NCBI GenBank assembly: GCA_003345555.1 | Contig: PRDJ01000042.1 | Coordinates: 44,678-76,677, forward strand | Direction: 5' to 3' | DNA: 32,000 nucleotides | Source of the DNA: Candidatus Thorarchaeota archaeon | GTDB lineage: Archaea; Asgardarchaeota; Thorarchaeia; Thorarchaeales; Thorarchaeaceae | Shown here: piece by piece, positions 8,566-21,316 of the stretch | Layout of the letters: every line of letters begins with the position of its first letter | How positions within the stretch are numbered: the stretch's first letter is position 1 | Made by a program: the position numbers and the translations under genes | The notes under the pieces: generated by a model | The model's database searches: none | Told to the model about the DNA's origin: nothing | What the model saw: only the letters and a program-made list of their open reading frames with translations

Positions 8566-8576
8566 TGCTCACTCTA

Positions 8577-8604
8577 TAATGCTCTCTCAAAGCACGAGCC
8601 GCGG
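8577..8604. repeat. Direct repeat, left copy (TAATGCTCTCTCAAAGCACGAGCCGCGG)
   Basis: Shares an exact 13-bp core AAAGCACGAGCCG (8589-8601) with 8974-8986, and 26 of 28 nt align with one 2-nt indel. Confidence 0.8.
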
Positions 8605-8666
8605 GATTCAACGGACAGTATCAGCACACGCGAGTTTCTACAGGACATCTCGTAGTTAAACTAACT

Positions 8667-8747
8667 TCATCCCGGCGGCGTAGGTTTTCCTTGTTTAACT
8701 TCTTTCTTTACCTTTGGTCGTCTAATGCTCTTTCCTTTCTTTCCCAT
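8667..8747 (-). CDS. Candidate 26-aa basic small protein MGKKGKSIRRPKVKKEVKQGKPTPPG
   Basis: ATG at 8747 after a purine-rich leader, with a TTTTATA box at 8812-8806 on the same strand. It has 10 Lys/Arg against 1 Glu. No homology was recognised. Confidence 0.35.
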   Translation of the reverse strand: MGKKGKSIRRPKVKKEVKQGKPTPPG

Positions 8748-8767
8748 TTTTCATCTCTTCTTTCTAA

Positions 8768-8781
8768 TAGAACCGGTTCTA
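8768..8781. promoter_or_regulatory. Perfect 14-bp palindrome TAGAACCGGTTCTA, possible operator
   Basis: Self-complementary 14-mer about 25-35 nt downstream of the minus-strand TATA-like box, upstream of the sORF. Confidence 0.35.
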
Positions 8782-8959
8782 CAAACCTCAAACGCAACAT
8801 ACAACTATAAAACAGCACGGATATGAGACCTTGGGGAACTTATAAGGAAATATTCCTTAGAGTATTCTGTTGGCACGAGTGATATAGGAGGGGGAATAAC
8901 AAGACCCCCTATCTTGTGATTTCTAATTCCTTTCCTCTGAAGAATTCCAAGAGGCTCAA

Positions 8960-8989
8960 TAATACTCTCTCTTAAAGCACGAGCCGTGG
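8960..8989. repeat. Direct repeat, right copy (TAATACTCTCTCTTAAAGCACGAGCCGTGG)
   Basis: Second copy of the 8577-8604 repeat, about 385 bp downstream. Confidence 0.8.
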
Positions 8990-9043
8990 CAACGTGTAAT
9001 GGCCCAGCGACACTCATATCAACTCAAGAAGAGGTCCTAGGTA

Positions 9044-9781
9044 ATGGACGAACCACTGCAATCCGCGCTCTACGCATCAATCGCTACACTGGACCAGCTC
9101 AAGAAAATGTACGACATGGGCGTTGTTGATGTCAGGTCGTATGAAAGGGAGTCTGAAGCGCTAATAACAGAGGTTCGGAATTGCATCGAACAGATGCGGA
9201 GAACCGGTCTTGACGTTGGGAACTTCGTGGGTCAGGCCCGGATATCGGAGTCGTTTCCCGAAGCGTCGAACATGCTGGGGCTGTACGGACGAGACACGCG
9301 GCAGCCAGGTATAGGGATGACAACTGATCAGTACTTCGACTACATCGGACTTGCCGTCTTAGATGTGGCTACCGCGAATTCCTCGAAAGGGCTGATGGGA
9401 CTTGCGGAACTCATTGTCGAGGTCGTGCGCCTGCTGCCAGAGCTCAAGTCTGTCAGCTACAATGACGTGATCGAGGCAGTGAACCGCGTGTCTCAACATG
9501 GATTGATACCGGGCATTCGGACGCTTAGGGGCGGAGTCAAAGTTGTGGAACTGCGTCCGTTAGAGCTGCGTCGTGACCAAGCAGATGTAATCAATGCTGC
9601 CGCCACCAAGGGGTACGTTTCCATTGAAGAGCTCATGATGCAGCTCAAGTGGTCAGAGGACCATGCACGTCAAGTTCTCTCCAGTCTGGTCGATGCTGGC
9701 ATGGCAGTGGCAGACATACGGTTCTCGACGGGTGGCCGCTATTACTTCCCGGGTTTAAGACCTAGAGATAGTACAGTGTAG
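9044..9781 (+). CDS. ESCRT-I/II hybrid: Vps28-like N-terminal domain fused to the Vps22/36 (EAP30) tandem winged-helix region
   Basis: The N-terminus LYASIATLDQLKKMYDMGVVDVRSYERESEALI...NF...RI...FPEA parallels the Vps28 N-domain. The C-terminus YFDYIGLAVLDV..GLMGLAEL..VSYNDVIEAV..ELRRDQADVI..GYVSIEEL...LKWSEDHARQVL...GMAVAD...YYFPGL parallels SNF8/Vps22. Confidence 0.85.
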   Translation: MDEPLQSALYASIATLDQLKKMYDMGVVDVRSYERESEALITEVRNCIEQMRRTGLDVGNFVGQARISESFPEASNMLGLYGRDTRQPGIGMTTDQYFDYIGLAVLDVATANSSKGLMGLAELIVEVVRLLPELKSVSYNDVIEAVNRVSQHGLIPGIRTLRGGVKVVELRPLELRRDQADVINAAATKGYVSIEELMMQLKWSEDHARQVLSSLVDAGMAVADIRFSTGGRYYFPGLRPRDSTV

Positions 9782-9829: not shown

Positions 9830-10543
9830 TCAGACCACTGCTAGTATTGCGCCTTTCTTCGAGTCAACCCATTTTGCCAATCCTTTGTCAACCATTATCT
9901 GCATGATTCGATGCAAGTCTCTTTCAGGGAGCTTCGAGAAGTCTTGGCCGGATTCCTGCACGACAATTGACTGCACATCTAGGCGCAGTTTTCCTGTCTT
10001 TATTGCCCAACGGTATATGATGTCACCCCATTCCTCGAGGGGTCGCCAGTAGACTCGAAGCTGTCTTTTCTTCTCGTCGAGCCATTCTCCAACGTCCTTC
10101 TTGACCAATGATTCACCTATGAATCTGAAGGCGTCGACCTTTCCAAGGATGTCACTGAACGGTTTCTCCTTCACGAAGGTTGACACTGAAAGAACATGTA
10201 TGCTTTTGAACTCGGTCCAAATCATAAGATAGTCTGACCACTCTTCCGCCCACATTTCTATGTCTTTTTCTGCAGGTGGAATATGATACATCCATTCAGC
10301 TTGGTTTACGTTTCCCCACTGCGGGGCCGGGAGCTCTAGGACCTGTGAGGGCGCAGACTCAGGGACGATTTCAGTCTGAATCGACTCGAGCTCCTGAGTC
10401 TGCGAATCCTCTTCAGCTTCAGTTTCGGTAACATCGACAAGAGTGTCGGTCTTAGGTGTCTCTTTGCCAACAGAAGCATCAGACGTTGGTTTGGGGGTTG
10501 GCTTCTGTCGCTCCTTTTCTTTCCGGCGTTCCTTCACTTCCAA
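9830..10543 (-). CDS. vps25: ESCRT-II subunit Vps25 with a charged, disordered N-terminal extension
   Basis: WAEEWSDYLMIW, GEWLDEKKRQLRVYWRPLEEWGDIIYRWAIKTG and FSKLPERDLHRIMQIMVDKGLAKW match the Vps25 winged helices. The TTG start is 3 nt after the vps4 stop. Confidence 0.86.
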   Translation of the reverse strand: MEVKERRKEKERQKPTPKPTSDASVGKETPKTDTLVDVTETEAEEDSQTQELESIQTEIVPESAPSQVLELPAPQWGNVNQAEWMYHIPPAEKDIEMWAEEWSDYLMIWTEFKSIHVLSVSTFVKEKPFSDILGKVDAFRFIGESLVKKDVGEWLDEKKRQLRVYWRPLEEWGDIIYRWAIKTGKLRLDVQSIVVQESGQDFSKLPERDLHRIMQIMVDKGLAKWVDSKKGAILAVV

Positions 10544-10546
10544 TCC

Positions 10547-11776
10547 CTAAGACGCCTCCCCCCATTCGATATACTTCCTTACGTCTTCTGGAGTTGTACC
10601 GGGTCCAATGTTCTCAATAGCCCGCAGAAAGTCGTCCCGTGAGACGGGCCGTAGTTCGAGTCGTGCGCGGTCGCTATCGAGCTTTCCCACGCGCTGTAGG
10701 TCTCTTATTGGTTCCATCGCGGCTTCCCGACATACCACACTAATATCCCGGCCACTATAACCGTCGGTCAAATCAGCAAGTTCTCCGAAGTCGACTTCCG
10801 GGGACAGTTCAATGTCTTCCATGTGAATCTCGAATATCTTTCTCCGTGAGGTTTTCCTTGGCAAGGGGATGTGAATCTTCTTCTCAAATCTTGATCGAAG
10901 AGCGAAGTCCAGTTCCCATGGAAGATTGGTAGCACCGATTACAGTAACCCTATCATCGGGATGAGTCGCCAATCCCTGCAGCTCAGTCAATAGCTGAGTC
11001 TTGAGTCGTCTCTCCCCGCCAACATCATGTCCCGTTCTTGAGATTCCAACAGAATCAAGCTCATCCATGAAGATAACGGAGGGCTGACTCCTCCTCGCCA
11101 TTTCAAAGAGGGTCATGACGAGCTTCTCTGACTCGCCGAGCCACTTGCTGACGATATTTGCGGCTGAGACATTGAAGAACGTTGCATGCACTTCAGAGGC
11201 CACAGCCTTTGCTATGAGAGTCTTACCACATCCTGATGGTCCATAGAACAGAATGCCCTTCCAGGGCTGCCTCGATTTTCCCTTGAAGAGTTCAGGATGT
11301 TTCATTGGAGACACAATGGCTTCTTGAATTACCTGCTTTGCATCGTCCAATCCTGCAACCTCGGACATTTTCAAATCCGGTCGTTCAGTAAGAATCGTGT
11401 CAGCAATCATATCCTGAAGGTGTCTCATGTCTTCGTTGTCGTCGCCTGTTTCCGAAGTCCTTCCGGATGGCAGTGATGGCTCTCCCCTGTCTATAGAAAA
11501 TGTGGCGGGAATACTTGGAATCGTCGGTCGTTCCGCTTGCCTTGTCTTAAGGCCTGAGATGTATCTTACCCGATCTACACACTCTTGGGCCCTGCTCAGG
11601 TAGTGCTTCTGCAAAGATGGAAGGGATGAGGAATTCGAGAGCTTGATGAGTATCATGCTTGCCTTTAGATAGTCACTACAAGCCTCTTTCTGGAGTCCTC
11701 TCCTGTCCAAATCTATTGCCTTTTCGAGCAAAGCCTTGACTCCAAGGTCGAGGCGGTCAGCGTCTGTTCCTGACAT
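10547..11776 (-). CDS. vps4: Vps4-type AAA+ ATPase with an N-terminal MIT domain
   Basis: MIT (LEKAIDLD...Y..A), Walker A GPSGCGKT, pore loop KWLGESEK, Walker B IFMDELD and GATNLPWELD. It lacks the eukaryotic beta-domain insertion and sits in an ESCRT locus. Confidence 0.93.
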   Translation of the reverse strand: MSGTDADRLDLGVKALLEKAIDLDRRGLQKEACSDYLKASMILIKLSNSSSLPSLQKHYLSRAQECVDRVRYISGLKTRQAERPTIPSIPATFSIDRGEPSLPSGRTSETGDDNEDMRHLQDMIADTILTERPDLKMSEVAGLDDAKQVIQEAIVSPMKHPELFKGKSRQPWKGILFYGPSGCGKTLIAKAVASEVHATFFNVSAANIVSKWLGESEKLVMTLFEMARRSQPSVIFMDELDSVGISRTGHDVGGERRLKTQLLTELQGLATHPDDRVTVIGATNLPWELDFALRSRFEKKIHIPLPRKTSRRKIFEIHMEDIELSPEVDFGELADLTDGYSGRDISVVCREAAMEPIRDLQRVGKLDSDRARLELRPVSRDDFLRAIENIGPGTTPEDVRKYIEWGEAS

Positions 11777-11965
11777 TCAAGGTCGCCAGTCAAGTGCGCT
11801 TGAATGGTTAAGAGTTTCTGTGTTTCGTAGCGCGATACTCCTTCAGTTGTCCTGCCCGCCAGAAAGGCACGTTTGTTACGAAGGCTTAAAGGCGGAGGTC
11901 TCGCACAACCCACAGAAGTTCATCATCAGGACATGGTGAGGTCGTTGGGTACATTCAGGAAGGCT

Positions 11966-12559
11966 ATGACTTGGGGTCGCAAGAAGCCGGACGTTGCAGA
12001 GGTAACCAGTCAGCTTAGAATCCTAGGCAAAGAGCTCGAGCGAGAGAGAAACAGGCTCGAGAAGGAAGAGACTGAGACCAAGGCTCGAGCGGTGCGGGCT
12101 CGGAAAGAGGGCCATGTCGACGCCTACAAGACCTACGCAGTAGAGATGATCCGGTTCAGGAAGTATGCTTTGTCTGTCGACAAATCGCGGCTTCACCTAC
12201 TGAGGGTACTCGGCCATATCGTTCATGCTCAGTCGGCCGCTAAGACGAGCTTGGCAGTAGAAAAGGTCGCCAAGATTCTCGGGATACTAGGTGATGCAAA
12301 AGACCCAACAAAGGTTGTTCGGAGTCTTGATGAGATTACTCGAAGACTGGACGCAATGGAAATCGAAAGCGGGATTTCTGACGAAGCCTTTGACTCTATG
12401 AAAGACAGCAAGGTGACGTCAGAAGAGCTGGCCGCAGCACTGCAGGAGATTGATGCCGAGGCTGGGGCTGCAAAGGTCGTCTCGCGGGCCGGTCCAGCTA
12501 CAGAGGCTGAGAAACTCGAAGAAGAGATCAAGTTGCTAGAGAAGGAACTTGGTGTCTAG
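11966..12559 (+). CDS. ESCRT-III (Snf7 family), Vps2/24/46 class
   Basis: Basic N-terminus, AYKTYAVEMIRFRK and the LDAMEIESGISDEAFD pattern of the CHMP1-3 class, plus an amphipathic C-terminal helix. Start moved to ATG 11966 after an SD-like AGGAAGG. Confidence 0.88.
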   Translation: MTWGRKKPDVAEVTSQLRILGKELERERNRLEKEETETKARAVRARKEGHVDAYKTYAVEMIRFRKYALSVDKSRLHLLRVLGHIVHAQSAAKTSLAVEKVAKILGILGDAKDPTKVVRSLDEITRRLDAMEIESGISDEAFDSMKDSKVTSEELAAALQEIDAEAGAAKVVSRAGPATEAEKLEEEIKLLEKELGV

Positions 12560-12560
12560 A

Positions 12561-14201
12561 CTAGCGCCCAAAGACCTGACGATTCCCAGAAGCCGTTTCT
12601 AGTCTTTTTCTCGTTTCAAATGAATCTCGCATGAGTCCCTTGTATCTCCTGATGAAATCCTCTGGGACCAGCTGACCGTTCCTCAATAGACGAACCGTTT
12701 CTCTAGCGGCATCCTCAATCGTTATCGCGTCTCTTCTGAGTCCCATTGTTTCTGCAGAGTCGGGAACCGGAGAAGGCATGCCACCTGCACCGAACAAGCC
12801 GCCGAGGTCTCGGCCGAGTCTGTCGTGATACTGCAAAGGAGCTGTGCGGGCTCCGTTGTCAGATGCGTTTCCGAATGGATAGTACGAAGCCGATCGCCGG
12901 TCGTATGGTCCGTATCCAGCAGATGCTTGTGTCCCGATGTCAGCTTTTCCACCTGAACACATGAGCGAGTAGGCGAGTTCTTCTACCTTGAGCCTGACAT
13001 CGCTAATGCTCACGTCGGTCTGTCCGAGCTTTCTCGTTCGCTGAAGGTCTGACTGCATATACTTGTCGAATTTTCTGGCGATTTCTACATAATCTGGCAG
13101 AACACTCTCTGTCTGATCGCTGCAAGTTATCTTGATATCGCCCTGCTTCATTCTCAGGACTGTTCTCTTTCTCAGCCTGCCATCCTCTTCTAAACCCTTC
13201 ATGTAAGCAAGGGGTATATCGAAGACTATGTCGGTTTTCTTTCGGAGTCTTCCGGTTTCAGCAATAAAGACGAGCCTCTTGTTGGTTATGTACAAGGTGC
13301 CAGTGGCCTTGTCATTCTTCACGAAGTCACTGCCTGCGATTCTGATGTCGGGTAACGCACAGACTGGCAGTTCGTTTACAGACAGTTCTGCAGTCTCATA
13401 GAACCCCGCGAATTGCTTCCTATAGTAGTCCAGTCCGTCCAGCTGCTGTTCGATATCTACTAATGTCAGCCTCGCCTCTTCGATTGCGTCATCAATATTC
13501 TTCCGGTATTGACCCACAAGATGGGTGACACGATTCGTTACTCCGCCTACAAAGGGGAACTGATCGGCAGACCATGCGCTGGAATCGAGGAGCCCCTTGG
13601 TCTCAGCAGCCATTTGCCTCGAGACTATCTCCGCTTGGCTTGTCACTCTGTTCTTGATGGCAGGGATCTCCATCTCGATGTTCTCAATCTTCTCTTCCAG
13701 CCAGCGATAGTGAAGGAAATTCGCCATCCTGAGAGAAACAAGAAGCCTCTTGGCTGACATCAGCTGGTTGGTGAAATCGCGCAGGCGTGTGTATCCATAG
13801 TGGAGTGTGATTATGGCATGACGCAGGTCTTGAGCCAGCACCTTTCTTTTGTCCTCTACAGACACCGTGTGTGTGGAATGGCACCTGGGACAGATTTCTT
13901 CGATTCGCTTCCCAGCACTCAGCTCTCGAGAGCCGCATTCCGGGCATTTCTCGAACTTCTGCCCTGGGGCGGGAGTGCCAAGGCCGTGGTGGCAATTACT
14001 GCATACAATGTGCTCGCTTGACTTGGTCTCAAGGCATTCCAAGCACAATACCTCTCCGCAATCCTCACAAAGATGCGTGGCTCTATTGCTCTTGCAGACT
14101 TTACAGAGCTGGGTAGAGGATTCGTTACTCAACTGGGTGCCTCCGAACATCTGGGCTTGCATATTGTACTGAGGAGTCATGGATAATTGGCTATGTATCA
14201 C
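12561..14201 (-). CDS. Multidomain ESCRT-I-like protein: B-box/Zn ribbons, coiled coil, PH-like (GRAM/GLUE) domain, low-complexity linker, Vps23/37 steadiness-box hairpin
   Basis: Six CxxC pairs at the N-terminus, a heptad-rich middle, GTLYITNKRLVF, and C-terminal IEDAARETVRLLRNGQLVPEDFIRRYKGLMRDSFETR. The true start may be one of the downstream Met codons. Confidence 0.75.
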   Translation of the reverse strand: MIHSQLSMTPQYNMQAQMFGGTQLSNESSTQLCKVCKSNRATHLCEDCGEVLCLECLETKSSEHIVCSNCHHGLGTPAPGQKFEKCPECGSRELSAGKRIEEICPRCHSTHTVSVEDKRKVLAQDLRHAIITLHYGYTRLRDFTNQLMSAKRLLVSLRMANFLHYRWLEEKIENIEMEIPAIKNRVTSQAEIVSRQMAAETKGLLDSSAWSADQFPFVGGVTNRVTHLVGQYRKNIDDAIEEARLTLVDIEQQLDGLDYYRKQFAGFYETAELSVNELPVCALPDIRIAGSDFVKNDKATGTLYITNKRLVFIAETGRLRKKTDIVFDIPLAYMKGLEEDGRLRKRTVLRMKQGDIKITCSDQTESVLPDYVEIARKFDKYMQSDLQRTRKLGQTDVSISDVRLKVEELAYSLMCSGGKADIGTQASAGYGPYDRRSASYYPFGNASDNGARTAPLQYHDRLGRDLGGLFGAGGMPSPVPDSAETMGLRRDAITIEDAARETVRLLRNGQLVPEDFIRRYKGLMRDSFETRKRLETASGNRQVFGR

Positions 14202-14327
14202 ACTGGTATTAGTCGATGCATGCTGGTGTTTGGCTAGCTAGTGCACTTGGTACTCTCCAAATGGATTGTCCCGTCCGGATTGGTTATATTACGGGAAGCA
14301 AGTTTCGGAACACAAGGCGAATCACGC

Positions 14328-15713
14328 ATGAAGACTCTCGCGCAGGCTGCAATTGAAGCCGCTCTCAAGACCGGAGCTGCTTTTGCAGACATCAGGATAG
14401 AAAACACAGTTACAACAATCATTGAAATCGATGATGGAGTCACAAAGAGGTCGATGGCCGCCCAGTTGAAGGGGGCGGGAATAAGAGCATTCTTCGACGG
14501 AGCTTGGGCATTCGGTCAAACCACGGACCTAACTCCTTCTGCAATGCGAAGTACTGCGGCATCTGTTGCCAAGATGGCTATTGCCACGCACGGCAGAGTC
14601 GCAGAGAAGTTCAGCATTGACGGACCTGCCTTCGAAGACAATGTCCGTCTCAAGGTGAAACGCCCACTCCAAGATGTGGGTGCGGCGGAGAAGGTTGCAT
14701 TGGTCAAGATGATAGATGAGCAGGCTCGAGGTTATGACAAGAGGATAGCAAATGCCCGGACTACGTATGGAGACCTGTGGACCGAGCTGTACGTAGCCAA
14801 TTCATTGGGTACGAGTGTTTACATCGAGAATTCGCTGCCGCGCATTGTCAGTATGGTAACAGCCAAGGACGGAGCCAACAGACAGCGGGCGTTCAAGTCA
14901 GCGGGGGCAAGGGGTGGTTTCGATGAGATGCAGACCGAACACGCTCAAACAATCGGCGAAGAGTCTTCCAAGTTGGCTGTTGAACTCCTGTCTTCTGTCG
15001 CTGCAAAGGGTGGAGTCTATGATGTCATCATGGATCCAGTTTTCAATGGAGTAATGGTGCATGAAGCGTTTGGTCATGCTTGCGAGGCAGACAACTGGCC
15101 AGCTCATACCACGGTACTAGAAGACAAGGTGGAGAAGGTTGTGGGGCCTGAACACCTGAATTTGAGTGATGATCCTACCCTTGAGGGGATGCGTGGTTCG
15201 TTTCCTTACGACTGGGAAGGGACTAAGACCCGAAAGAGACATCTTGTCAGACGCGGCGTACTTACGGATCTACTGCATGGCCTTGAGTCTTCCAGTCGGC
15301 TAAACATGGAACCAAACGGTGCGGCAAGGGCCCAATCGTTCATGAGTGAGCCGATTCCTCGGATGAGCAACACGTTCATGGAGCCCGGCGACTGGCGTGT
15401 TGATGAGCTGATTTCAGACACGCGCCAAGGAATCCTGCTTTGCGACTTCAACTATGGCTACACGGAGCCATCAAAGGGTCAGTTCATGTTTCAGGCGAGC
15501 TATGGATATATGATTGAAGGTGGAGAAGTTGGCCAGATTGTGCGCGATGTATCAGTTGCAGGACAGATTCTTGATGTACTTCCCAAGATAGATGCCGTGG
15601 CGAACGACTTCAGATTGGAAGCAGGGAGTTGCGGCAAGAACGCTCAGCTGGTTCCGGATATGAGTGGCGGACCTCACGCTCGGGTACGGTCAGTTCCGGT
15701 AGGAGGAATGTAA
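14328..15713 (+). CDS. tldD: TldD family metalloprotease
   Basis: HEAFGHACEAD zinc motif, YDWEG, GAARAQSF..PIPRMSNT and GSCGK. Start moved to ATG 14328. Confidence 0.93.
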   Translation: MKTLAQAAIEAALKTGAAFADIRIENTVTTIIEIDDGVTKRSMAAQLKGAGIRAFFDGAWAFGQTTDLTPSAMRSTAASVAKMAIATHGRVAEKFSIDGPAFEDNVRLKVKRPLQDVGAAEKVALVKMIDEQARGYDKRIANARTTYGDLWTELYVANSLGTSVYIENSLPRIVSMVTAKDGANRQRAFKSAGARGGFDEMQTEHAQTIGEESSKLAVELLSSVAAKGGVYDVIMDPVFNGVMVHEAFGHACEADNWPAHTTVLEDKVEKVVGPEHLNLSDDPTLEGMRGSFPYDWEGTKTRKRHLVRRGVLTDLLHGLESSSRLNMEPNGAARAQSFMSEPIPRMSNTFMEPGDWRVDELISDTRQGILLCDFNYGYTEPSKGQFMFQASYGYMIEGGEVGQIVRDVSVAGQILDVLPKIDAVANDFRLEAGSCGKNAQLVPDMSGGPHARVRSVPVGGM

Positions 15714-15714
15714 G

Positions 15715-17064
15715 ATGACGAAGCAGCTCACGGACCTAGCAGAGAAGACAGTCAAAGTCGCAGAACGATTGGGCGCTGAGCAGGCGGAGGTCTACATCGG
15801 TTCCACACGGTCTTTCTCGATTGATGTTGAGAACAATGCTATCAAGAGCGCCGCCGAAAGAAGAGACGCTGGGTGCGGCATTCGATGCGTGTTTGGAAAG
15901 AAGATAGGCTTCGCATACGTAACCACACTAAACGGTGATGACATCGAAAATGCCTTGCGCAGGTCCATTTCTTTGGCAAAGGCATCAGTCGCTGATCCCG
16001 ACTTCGTGAGTCTGCCCGGTCCTGAGTCACGCTACCCCGTTGTGAAGGACTTGTTTGACAAGGGCGTAGAAGGCTTGACTGCTGATGAAGCTGCTGACCT
16101 TATCGCAGGATGTCTAGATGCTGCCAAGGAGCCTCTGCATGGAAGGAAGTATGCCATTCAGGCAGACTTGAGCACTTCTTCGGGTAGCAGAGCAATCGCC
16201 AACTCTCTCGGAGTGTCACAGTCTGCAGAATCGACTTCTATAACAATGTACAGCGAGGTGACAATCAAAGAACAGGCGGACCAAACGTCAAGTTACGAGT
16301 ATCTGGTGTCGCGTGCACTGAGGGAGATTAATCCTGAGTGGATCGGCAGGACCGCTTCGGAGAATGCATTGCGCAATCTCGGAGCGAAGACTATCGAAGG
16401 CGGCGACATGTCAGTAATCATGACACCTCTGGCCGTAAGCATGGTTGTCGGATCAGGTTTTGCAGATGCCGTCAACGCAGAAGAGGTTCAACAGGGACGT
16501 TCCTACATCTCAGATGCAATTGGCTCGGAAGTTGCATCGGATGAATTACATATCGTGGATGATGGTTTGCTCAAGGGCGGAGTAGGGTCACGAGCATTTG
16601 ATGCAGAAGGTGCCCTTTCTCAACGGACTCAGGTGCTGAAACGCGGTGTGTTGCGGAGTCTGCTCCATAGCTCTTACACCGCTAACAAGGATCGGGTTCC
16701 CAATACCGGGAATGCTTCTCGGCCTTCCTACGCTGGCATACCAATGATTGCCACTACCAACTTCGTGATTGAGCCTGGGCGCGGCATGCTTGAAGATCTC
16801 GTCTCAGAAGTGAAGAAGGGCGTCCTCTGCATGAATACATTCGATCGACCGAACATGACCACGGGCGATCTGAGCGCAATGGTGAGCGAAGGTTTCTACA
16901 TAGAGGACGGCGAACTCAGACAAGGAGTCAAGAGTACTCTCATAGGCATCAACATGCGTGACCTTCTCAAGAGGGTCATTCGTGTCGGTGCAGACACGAG
17001 AGCAACAGGCCGCATGGTGACCCCTTCCATCGTGATTGATTCTGCCAAGATAACCTCCGGATGA
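15715..17064 (+). CDS. pmbA: PmbA/TldE family protein (non-catalytic partner of TldD)
   Basis: GAEQAEVY, GCGIR, RAFDAEG, TGNASR and TGDLS. No HExxH motif; starts 1 nt after tldD. Confidence 0.9.
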   Translation: MTKQLTDLAEKTVKVAERLGAEQAEVYIGSTRSFSIDVENNAIKSAAERRDAGCGIRCVFGKKIGFAYVTTLNGDDIENALRRSISLAKASVADPDFVSLPGPESRYPVVKDLFDKGVEGLTADEAADLIAGCLDAAKEPLHGRKYAIQADLSTSSGSRAIANSLGVSQSAESTSITMYSEVTIKEQADQTSSYEYLVSRALREINPEWIGRTASENALRNLGAKTIEGGDMSVIMTPLAVSMVVGSGFADAVNAEEVQQGRSYISDAIGSEVASDELHIVDDGLLKGGVGSRAFDAEGALSQRTQVLKRGVLRSLLHSSYTANKDRVPNTGNASRPSYAGIPMIATTNFVIEPGRGMLEDLVSEVKKGVLCMNTFDRPNMTTGDLSAMVSEGFYIEDGELRQGVKSTLIGINMRDLLKRVIRVGADTRATGRMVTPSIVIDSAKITSG

Positions 17065-20482: not shown

Positions 20483-21316
20483 ATGTCAGACCGCCTTTCC
20501 ATTCACGGCATCTGGTTAATTGAACGCCATACGGGTAGGAATCTGATAGCCCGGGCGTATACCGGTGTCTCCATCGATATGGACTTGATCGCACCATTTC
20601 TGTCAGCGACTCACACTTTCATAAACCGCGCAGCGAACGAGACTCTGAGAACAATCGACACTGATACACATAGGTACGTGTGGGCTGCAAATGATGAGCT
20701 GTTGTTTGTGATGGTAATATCCAAGGGCGCACGCACAGGACACATGCGGTTCCTTCTCGATTATGCACTGAATGAGTTCATGCACAACGAAGTCCCTGAG
20801 GGAATGGACCTGCCCACCTTCTTGAAACAATGGGAAGGAAACCCAGTGAGCTTCGAGCGGTTCGCCAGATTCGTGGATGAGCTGGTCTCTCAGTATGAAC
20901 AATCAGGCGATAGTCTCGTGGCCGGAAAGACGATGGACTGTCTTGAGGTGCACAATCATATCTTCAGGGCACTAATGGAAGTAAAGGTCGACAAGAGGAC
21001 CCGCAAGAAGATGGTTGAGGAAATCAAAGCACGACTTCGGCCGCTTGTAGAAACACACCCCTTCTTGGCTGTGGTGCCTGTGGATGATGCAGGCATTGAA
21101 GTTCTCAACATTGACGTATACAGTGTGGAGTACAAAGCCCTCCGAAGCGCGCTGGAGAGCGTGTTCCAGGTGGTCGCCGAGGTGATAAGGAACGTTGCGG
21201 GTGAGGAACCGTATCGGAACATGATCTTCGACCATGCAATGCCCTATGTCAAGAACGACATCGAACGCCTCCAGACCTATGCGATTCTCGACGATATTGT
21301 ACGATACCTATTCTAA
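20483..21316 (+). CDS. Longin-like domain protein with a C-terminal helical domain
   Basis: IHGIWLIERHTGRNLIARAY, DLIAPFLSATHTF, the RYVW..NDELLFVMVISK strands and the FARFVDELV helix give the beta-beta-alpha-beta-beta-beta-alpha-alpha longin pattern. Confidence 0.7.
   Translation: MSDRLSIHGIWLIERHTGRNLIARAYTGVSIDMDLIAPFLSATHTFINRAANETLRTIDTDTHRYVWAANDELLFVMVISKGARTGHMRFLLDYALNEFMHNEVPEGMDLPTFLKQWEGNPVSFERFARFVDELVSQYEQSGDSLVAGKTMDCLEVHNHIFRALMEVKVDKRTRKKMVEEIKARLRPLVETHPFLAVVPVDDAGIEVLNIDVYSVEYKALRSALESVFQVVAEVIRNVAGEEPYRNMIFDHAMPYVKNDIERLQTYAILDDIVRYLF

Follow-up and report, generated by a model that had tools for sequence, protein, structure and literature searches.

In a 32,000-nucleotide stretch of a Candidatus Thorarchaeota genome (assembly GCA_003345555.1, contig PRDJ01000042.1, positions 44,678 to 76,677; the whole of this stretch, numbered from its first letter, is referred to here as the window), a single open reading frame (ORF) at 9044-9781 encodes a protein in which the N-terminal headpiece hairpin of Vps28, a subunit of ESCRT-I (ESCRT: endosomal sorting complex that is required for transport), is joined directly to the tandem winged-helix core of the ESCRT-II subunit Vps22. 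The protein is the Thorarchaeota-type Vps22 ('Vps22#', cog.002769) of Makarova et al. 2024, mBio 15:e00335-24 (PMC10936438), an ESCRT-II subunit of the Asgard ESCRT machinery, and the fusion of a steadiness box (SB) to Vps22 is an architecture already published in that work. The Vps28 hairpin stands in place of the canonical Vps22 N-helices; taking the evidence as a whole, we consider it probable that it hard-wires the link from ESCRT-I to ESCRT-II, and that the fusion is derived. The source genome is metagenome-assembled (82 contigs, 2.28 Mb, 93% complete), and the G+C content of the window is ~50% throughout.

Domain layout of the fusion protein

The fusion gene and its parts are as follows:

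9044..9781, plus strand: Vps28N-Vps22 fusion gene, 245 aa, stop codon within the coordinates (ORF list and translation)
9050..9277, plus strand: Vps28 N-terminal (headpiece or SB) domain, residues 3-78 (hhalign, phmmer, AlphaFold2 (AF2) and Foldseek)
9278..9322, plus strand: linker forming the domain junction, residues 79-93, variable and probably disordered
9323..9553, plus strand: winged-helix domain 1 (WH1) of the Vps22/EAP30 core, residues 94-170 (Pfam EAP30, SNF8 alignment, hhalign and AF2 secondary structure)
9554..9757, plus strand: winged-helix domain 2 (WH2), residues 171-238 (same basis as WH1, with Foldseek to SNF8 in addition)

The ATG start is common to every aligned homologue, and 137 homologous protein clusters, which come from NCBI, JGI, ENA and Logan assemblies, agree with the fusion protein in length and architecture and keep the frame unbroken; nearly all of the named close homologues are Thorarchaeota-labelled. 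The Vps28-type domain begins with a long helical hairpin (helices at residues 3-24 and 30-54), after which come three short helices (58-78). The linker holds the least conserved columns of the family alignment, with one indel, and its residues 82-90 have a predicted local distance difference test score (pLDDT) below 50 in the AF2 model. In eukaryotic ESCRT-II, Vps22 binds Vps25 through WH2, as seen in published ESCRT-II structures.

The N-terminal third is a Vps28 headpiece hairpin

An earlier note on this DNA had proposed that residues ~7-80 track VPS28, and this was borne out by profile, sequence and fold comparison. With hhalign, an alignment of 23 sequences of the fusion N-domain matched an alignment of 9 Asgard Vps28 sequences with a probability of 99.0% and an E-value of 4.3e-18 over 83 columns (residues 3-85), and the Asgard Vps28 profile, searched against the fusion's own genome, matched the fusion ORF at E 3.1e-14. 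An exhaustive phmmer search of 1.84 billion representative proteins, with library-wide E-values, returned two proteins matched by the N-terminal part alone: one of 222 aa from a cluster labelled Jordarchaeales (P0252; E 2e-5 over fusion residues 5-84) and one of 303 aa (P0261; E 4.8e-5 over residues 6-75). Pfam identifies the two as full-length Vps28 (E 3e-17 over positions 3-188 of 188 and E 1.4e-15 over positions 2-187 of 188, respectively), and their gapless pairwise identity to the fusion N-domain is 36%, over 80 and 67 residues. On the fusion itself, the Pfam VPS28 profile (PF03997) matches residues 7-64 with positions 2-61 of its 188, and the score of 18 bits (E 0.0026) falls below the cutoff of 24.5 bits. 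This is what would be expected of a genuine N-domain, because residues 1-110 of the bona fide Jordarchaeales Vps28, scored alone, reach 19.9 bits, compared to 20.1 bits for fusion residues 1-92.

The fold of the domain gave the same identity. Since the winged helices dominate a Foldseek search with the full-length model, making it uninformative on the N-domain, this part was folded separately (AF2 pLDDT 81). With the isolated N-domain as query, the top 11 of 350,542 PDB chains were all Vps28 of human or yeast ESCRT-I headpieces (6vme, 2caz, 2f6m, 2p22), with template modelling (TM) scores up to 0.74 and a root-mean-square deviation (rmsd) of 2.7 Å over 81 columns for the best matches, whereas Vps23 and other shorter headpiece chains aligned over just 51-61 columns. 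The Foldseek E-values of 0.07-0.7 were weak, which is normal for a helical domain of this small size, and it is the ranking that counts most. In a search of PDB sequences with the family profile, SNF8/Vps22 came first and the next four chains were yeast Vps28 N-domains (2f6m_B, 2f66_B, 2p22_B and 2caz_B; E 0.14-0.26).

These results show true homology between the N-terminal third of the fusion and the headpiece hairpin at the N-terminus of Vps28. The C-terminal four-helix bundle of Vps28 had been described as missing, and in agreement with this, nothing in the fusion aligned to Vps28 positions ~105-222 in hhalign comparison with the Asgard Vps28 profile, all matches ending near position 100-106. 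As this bundle is absent and the remainder of the protein is winged helix, the fusion is not a Vps28 orthologue as a whole.

The C-terminal two thirds are the winged-helix core of Vps22

The second half of the protein was recognised by Pfam EAP30 (PF04157): residues 92-224 matched positions 83-218 of the 219 in the profile at 49.6 bits (E 5e-13), above the cutoff of 26.8 bits. Human SNF8 was found at E 2.3e-19 over residues 89-240 in the profile search of PDB sequences, the SNF8 chains 2zme_A and 3cuq_A ranked first (7.5e-9) when the full-length model was searched with Foldseek, and hhalign of the full-length family against canonical Asgard Vps22 gave an E-value of 1.2e-37 with residues 94-244 alone aligned. 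The C-terminal two thirds are shown by these matches to be the tandem winged-helix core of Vps22, consistent with the proposal in the earlier note that residues ~95-238 track the C-terminal region of SNF8. The winged helices resemble Vps22 more closely than they do Vps36 or Vps25.

The ESCRT locus and predicted docking of the hairpin

Genes for Vps25, Vps4, ESCRT-III and an SB protein all lie within 5 kb of the fusion gene:

9830..10543, minus strand: Vps25-like ESCRT-II subunit, 237 aa, convergent with the fusion gene (Pfam ESCRT-II PF05871, E 5e-11, residues 98-186)
10547..11776, minus strand: Vps4 AAA ATPase with MIT, AAA and Vps4_C domains (Pfam AAA 9e-39, Vps4_C 8.5e-5, MIT 1.8e-3)
11873..12559, plus strand: ESCRT-III (Snf7 family) subunit (Pfam Snf7 E 5e-13); the real start may be downstream of the listed TTG
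12561..14201, minus strand: Znr_PH_CC_SB-family protein (cog.011556, Makarova 2024), 546 aa (Cys pairs, conserved blocks and weak Pfam matches)
12597..12710, minus strand: C-terminal SB hairpin of the Znr_PH_CC_SB-family protein, residues ~498-535 (complex model and conserved residues)

The Vps25-like protein carries an acidic, low-complexity N-terminal extension of ~95 aa ahead of its PF05871 match. The Znr_PH_CC_SB protein belongs to a family described by Makarova et al. 2024 (PMC10936438) and contains several CxxC pairs (Zn ribbons or B-box-like), a long conserved coiled coil, a PH/GRAM-like domain and the C-terminal SB hairpin, with weak Pfam matches to GRAM and to the Vps36 GLUE domain. 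It has 141 homologous clusters, most of the named ones Thorarchaeota-labelled, and its database version is 533 aa long, making the GTG start at 14201 uncertain. In alignment, the consensus of its C-terminal hairpin resembles the steadiness box of Vps23/TSG101.

In ESCRT-I, the Vps28 N-terminal hairpin packs on the C-terminal steadiness box of Vps23, while ESCRT-II structures have the winged helices of Vps22 bound to Vps25, which nucleates ESCRT-III; the eukaryotic link between the two complexes is non-covalent and runs from the Vps28 C-domain to Vps36. A complex model of the fusion N-domain with residues 478-546 of the Znr_PH_CC_SB neighbour scored 0.77 by the interaction prediction score from aligned errors (ipSAE), and the best of three controls scored 0.00; the mark for this score is attained by 58 of 80 solved complexes and by 2 of 110 mismatched pairs. 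The runs agreed in at least 98% of contacts, with a partner pLDDT of at least 80. The modelled interface involves neighbour residues 503-532 and, on the fusion, residues 3-40 and 65, with helix 1 and the beginning of helix 2 taking part, and it includes residues that are invariant in the fusion (A11, A14, T15, E36 and L40) and in the neighbour (G509, E514, F516, I517, R525 and S527).

From this model, and by analogy with eukaryotic ESCRT-II, a mechanism can be proposed in which the Vps28-type hairpin would pack on the Vps23-type SB at the C-terminus of the neighbour to form an ESCRT-I-like headpiece, and the winged helices would bind the adjacent Vps25 and in this way recruit ESCRT-III and Vps4. 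The link from ESCRT-I to ESCRT-II would then be hard-wired in one polypeptide, the headpiece hairpin being part of the ESCRT-II stalk subunit. Such a link fits the absence of a detectable Vps28 C-domain and of a stand-alone Vps28 (own genome and 60 relatives), and that of a canonical Vps22 (own genome). Contacts between Asgard Vps25 and ESCRT-IIIB are on record, and a Loki steadiness-box protein binds Vps22 in yeast two-hybrid assays (Hatano et al. 2022, Nat Commun 13:3398, PMC9192718).

Several points weigh against this interpretation. The docking score may have passed by likeness to solved Vps23-C:Vps28-N structures (2f6m, 2caz, 6vme); given that such complexes exist, the score shows likeness and not binding of these two copies. 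The neighbour's SB is weakly identified by sequence, with Pfam Vps23_core at E 0.18 and yeast Vps23 at E 0.79 amid noise in a profile search of the PDB. Thor Vps22 self-interacts in yeast two-hybrid assays (Hatano 2022, PMC9192718), and the hairpin might serve homodimerisation instead of, or besides, docking. The judgement that the fusion is derived, for its part, is drawn from phyletic distribution. Searched over the whole own genome, Pfam Vps23_core gave a best E-value of 0.46, and hhalign of the fusion's Vps28-type N-domain against the neighbour's Vps23-type SB gave a probability of 8%, a value that does not establish profile-level kinship between the two hairpin types.

The alternative that survives best, although we think it unlikely, is that the hairpin serves mainly in self-association of the Vps22 stalk, standing in for the lost N-helices that hold a Vps22-Vps36 pair or a Vps22 homodimer together. 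In its favour are the two-hybrid self-interaction, the role in promoting Vps22-Vps36 pairing that is ascribed to canonical N-helices (PMC10936438), and the side-by-side packing of SB hairpins in ESCRT-I headpieces. Against this stand the confident modelled heterotypic interface with the neighbour's SB, which would engage invariant residues of both proteins, and the conservation of the SB protein across Thorarchaeota together with its place in the ESCRT locus here; in addition, docking and self-association are not exclusive roles. We favour a Vps22 whose Vps28 hairpin docks on the neighbour's SB. A wider scheme, plausible but put forward tentatively, is that Thorarchaeota early ESCRT is simplified and ubiquitin-independent, with two proteins replacing the Vps23, Vps28, Vps37, Vps36 and Vps22 chain of eukaryotes and other Asgards: the Znr_PH_CC_SB protein would bind membrane and cargo, and its SB would dock on the hairpin of Vps22, feeding Vps25, ESCRT-III and Vps4, the Vps28 C-domain bridge and the Vps22 N-helices having been lost together at the fusion.

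Distribution and direction of the fusion

The full-length family profile was searched in 251 Asgard genomes from 28 families. Matches over positions 1-247 occurred only in the window's own family (59 of 59 genomes) and in one genome of the same order (G112), whose ORF carries the Vps28 motif. In the other Asgard families, matches start at about positions 71-111 and a few at 19-41, and in the five early-starting ORFs that were read (L008, L009 and L011-L013) the N-helices lack the Vps28 motif, those of four ORFs being SNF8-like. The Vps28 of Jordarchaeales is complete, both of its domains being present. Across 61 family genomes, the Asgard Vps28 profile matched at profile positions ~17-100 alone, always within a fusion ORF of ~250-280 aa, and detected neither a Vps28 C-domain nor a stand-alone Vps28, although this profile is shallow (9 relatives of the Jordarchaeales Vps28) and very divergent C-domains could escape it. 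In the 93%-complete own genome, searches with PF03997, PF04157 and the Asgard Vps28 profile gave the fusion ORF as the sole match above noise, with no stand-alone Vps28, Vps28 C-domain or canonical Vps22.

Two sets of weak matches were set aside. A second PF03997 match in the own genome, in a 186-aa ORF on contig 67 (E 0.08), is a low-complexity coiled coil and was taken as chance. Vps28-profile matches in ORFs of ~1006-1028 aa (own contig 78, E 0.03; three relatives, 2e-4 to 9e-4) were taken as spurious, the own ORF being a UPF0182 membrane protein.

Because the fusion is confined, among the genomes sampled, to one order, while other Asgard lineages and eukaryotes keep the canonical EAP30 N-helices, it looks derived. 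On this distribution it is most likely a lineage-specific rearrangement and not an ancestral state, and by parsimony we infer that it arose once, in the Thorarchaeota stem. The earlier note had read the protein as a chimera bridging two complexes that are separate in eukaryotes, and as informative on the origin of ESCRT-I and ESCRT-II; the chimera is real, but its restriction to all of the family genomes and one further genome of the order gives it the look of a later, lineage-specific product instead of a relic of that origin. For the latter significance to hold, the fused form would have to be ancestral, a single ESCRT-I/II protein that later underwent fission into Vps28 and Vps22. Such a course could appeal to the treatment of SB hairpins and winged-helix (wH) domains as ancient, shuffled building blocks (Makarova 2024, PMC10936438), and fusions can come before fissions. 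We nevertheless regard it as improbable, given the narrow occurrence of full-length matches among the genomes searched, the canonical full-length EAP30 layout that Baldr/Odin-, Sif- and Hod/Heimdall-labelled proteins have in common with eukaryotes, the complete two-domain Vps28 of Jordarchaeales, and a parsimony argument that leads to a single fusion in the Thorarchaeota stem.

Replacement of the Vps22 N-helices

The canonical Vps22 N-helices correspond to EAP30 profile positions 1-82. Canonical Asgard Vps22 proteins, from clusters labelled Baldr/Odin, Sif and Hod/Heimdall, span EAP30 positions 1-219, and ORFs of other Asgard families have SNF8-like N-terminal helices without a trace of the Vps28 motif. 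The fusion N-domain did not align to these helices in hhalign comparison with 20 canonical Asgard Vps22 (probability 0.7%), and the earlier note was correct in describing them as missing. This lack of similarity, taken with the presence of N-helices in the other lineages, indicates that the canonical helical domain was replaced, not diverged.

The remaining doubt about identity would be that the N-terminal 90 residues are a diverged Vps22/Vps36 helical domain, or a generic helical hairpin, with a likeness to Vps28 that arose by chance. The sub-cutoff Pfam VPS28 score and the weak Foldseek E-values of the N-domain could be read in this way, as could the alignment by Foldseek of the whole model, N-helices included, to SNF8, but the rmsd of that alignment is 14-17 Å. 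We give this explanation very little weight. The contrast between an hhalign probability of 99% against Asgard Vps28 (E 4e-18) and 0.7% against canonical Asgard Vps22 counts as refuting it; phmmer picked two full-length Vps28 out of 1.8 billion proteins; all of the top 11 PDB chains were Vps28 N-domains, the best over 81 columns as against 51-61 for other headpiece chains; a true Vps28 N-domain alone is equally sub-cutoff in Pfam; and a published HHpred probability of 99 points the same way (PMC10936438, Table S3). The N-terminus is Vps28-specific both by sequence profile and by fold, and not a mere generic hairpin.

Reality of the junction

A 10.3-kb DNA contig from a different study spans the linker at 9278-9322 with one mismatch, and two metatranscriptome contigs from two further studies also span it (9018-9349 and 9013-9407). 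In all three, the junction was free of joints and indels. In runs X2, X7 and X8, parts of the stretch have no contig cover, and nothing is read from these gaps. The architecture is unbroken in all 59 sampled genomes of the family, single-contig assemblies among them, so that the assembly chimera against which the earlier note had cautioned is not found. That the fusion is an artefact of assembly or gene calling, joining a small Vps28-N gene to a truncated Vps22 gene, is scarcely credible: the window does come from a metagenome-assembled genome of 82 contigs and the linker is poorly conserved and predicted to be disordered, but the frame is unbroken in 137 protein clusters from many sources, its integrity across the family, one-contig assemblies included, counts as refuting, and DNA and RNA contigs from separate studies cross the junction cleanly.

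The presence of the gene in RNA libraries is compatible with its expression but is not proof of it. The metatranscriptome contigs start at 9013 and 9018, ~26-31 nt upstream of the ATG, although contigs cannot define a transcript start. Upstream, a 478-bp gap (8566-9043) between an aspartyl-tRNA synthetase-like gene and the fusion gene contains no convincing ORF and no tRNA. In one genome of the same genus (G152, C13:104460-105196), the fusion orthologue is matched as three successive pieces, which cover profile positions 1-77, 67-150 and 148-245; the pieces differ in frame or have stops, a sign of frameshifts or of faulty assembly there.

Other ESCRT-related and neighbouring genes

A 112-aa ORF on own contig 57 (L017:1360-1698, plus strand) combines a coiled coil with a C-terminal SB-like segment (E 0.0014 with the profile of the neighbour's SB) and is a candidate free-standing SB protein, possibly a third headpiece hairpin. 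An 800-aa ORF on own contig 39 (L005:1-2091, plus strand) forms, with P0145 and P0146, a family of ~770-805 aa with an EAP30-like C-terminus composed of a helical part and two winged helices. Pfam EAP30 matches this family at up to 3e-19 (P0146) and weakly, at E 0.0035, in the own-genome copy, and the family may represent a second stalk subunit of Vps36-like type. Own contig 30 also holds a 1236-aa ORF with a weak EAP30 match. The EAP30 search of the own genome brought up no recognisable Vps36 having the GLUE-domain layout of eukaryotes, the other EAP30-like matches being weak and in much larger ORFs.

Ubiquitin (Pfam PF00240) gave no match in the 93%-complete own genome. UEV (PF05743) gave none either, but the control was also silent, so this is not evidence of absence. 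The outcome of these searches agrees with the published description of Thorarchaeota as being without ubiquitin and UEV-Vps23 (PMC9192718).

Elsewhere in the window, tandem genes for TldD/PmbA-family metallopeptidases (490 and 449 aa; 14241-17064, plus strand) adjoin the SB-protein gene and are divergent from it. A 277-aa protein encoded at 20483-21316 (plus strand) weakly matches the FUZ/MON1/HPS1 first longin domain (E 1.8e-4, below cutoff) and is a further eukaryote-signature-type protein near the ESCRT locus.

Significance and comparison with known systems

For tracing the assembly of the ubiquitin-ESCRT pathway of eukaryotes out of helical hairpins and winged helices, Asgard ESCRT systems are the main source. 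The occurrence of an ESCRT-I headpiece element and an ESCRT-II core in one chain shows that the two complexes can be linked covalently, and the fusion and its neighbour offer a simple two-protein system for the study of headpiece assembly in vitro. What is new here is that the Vps28-type N-domain is confined, among the sampled genomes, to the Thorarchaeota order and so is probably derived; that a detectable Vps28 C-domain is consistently absent (61 family genomes) and a canonical Vps22 is absent from the own genome; and that the hairpin can be modelled as docking onto the neighbour's steadiness box. These additions are incremental, do not make this a new kind of system, and are of modest interest.

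The closest known system is Vps22# itself. Makarova et al. 2024 (PMC10936438) described Asgard Vps22 fused to an SB in an SB-wH-wH architecture, and their Table S3 lists a Thorarchaeota Vps22, KXH75178.1 (residues 1-70), matched to PF03997 with an HHpred probability of 99 and annotated as VPS28 N-terminal domain or SB. The fusion has the defining features of Vps22#, an N-terminal SB followed by two wH domains within an Asgard ESCRT neighbourhood, and it shares with cog.002769 the Vps28-type SB, the lineage and the partners at the locus. The published HHpred result agrees with the independent hhalign result obtained here, and the fusion is probably orthologous to KXH75178.1. It differs in scope, as the SB fusion is worded in that paper for the entire Asgard cluster of orthologous genes (asCOG), whereas among the genomes sampled here the Vps28-type N-domain occurs in the Thorarchaeota order only.

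Compared to eukaryotic Vps22/SNF8/EAP30 (3CUQ, 2ZME, 1U5T), the fusion has the same tandem winged-helix core and a Vps25 gene next door, but in place of the N-terminal helical domain that packs on Vps36 it has the Vps28 hairpin. Compared to Vps28 (6VME, 2CAZ, 2F6M, 2P22), it has the same N-terminal hairpin and short helices, with a TM score of 0.73 to human VPS28 in the headpiece and 36% identity over 80 residues to the 222-aa Jordarchaeales protein, and its N-domain is predicted to pack on a Vps23-type SB as in the solved Vps23-C:Vps28-N complex; the four-helix bundle through which Vps28 contacts ESCRT-II is replaced by the ESCRT-II winged helices themselves. A further parallel is the UEV-Vps23-Vps28 fusion of Heimdallarchaeota (Hatano et al. 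2022, PMC9192718), where one Asgard polypeptide likewise unites ESCRT subunits which eukaryotes keep apart. [quoted passage not shown]

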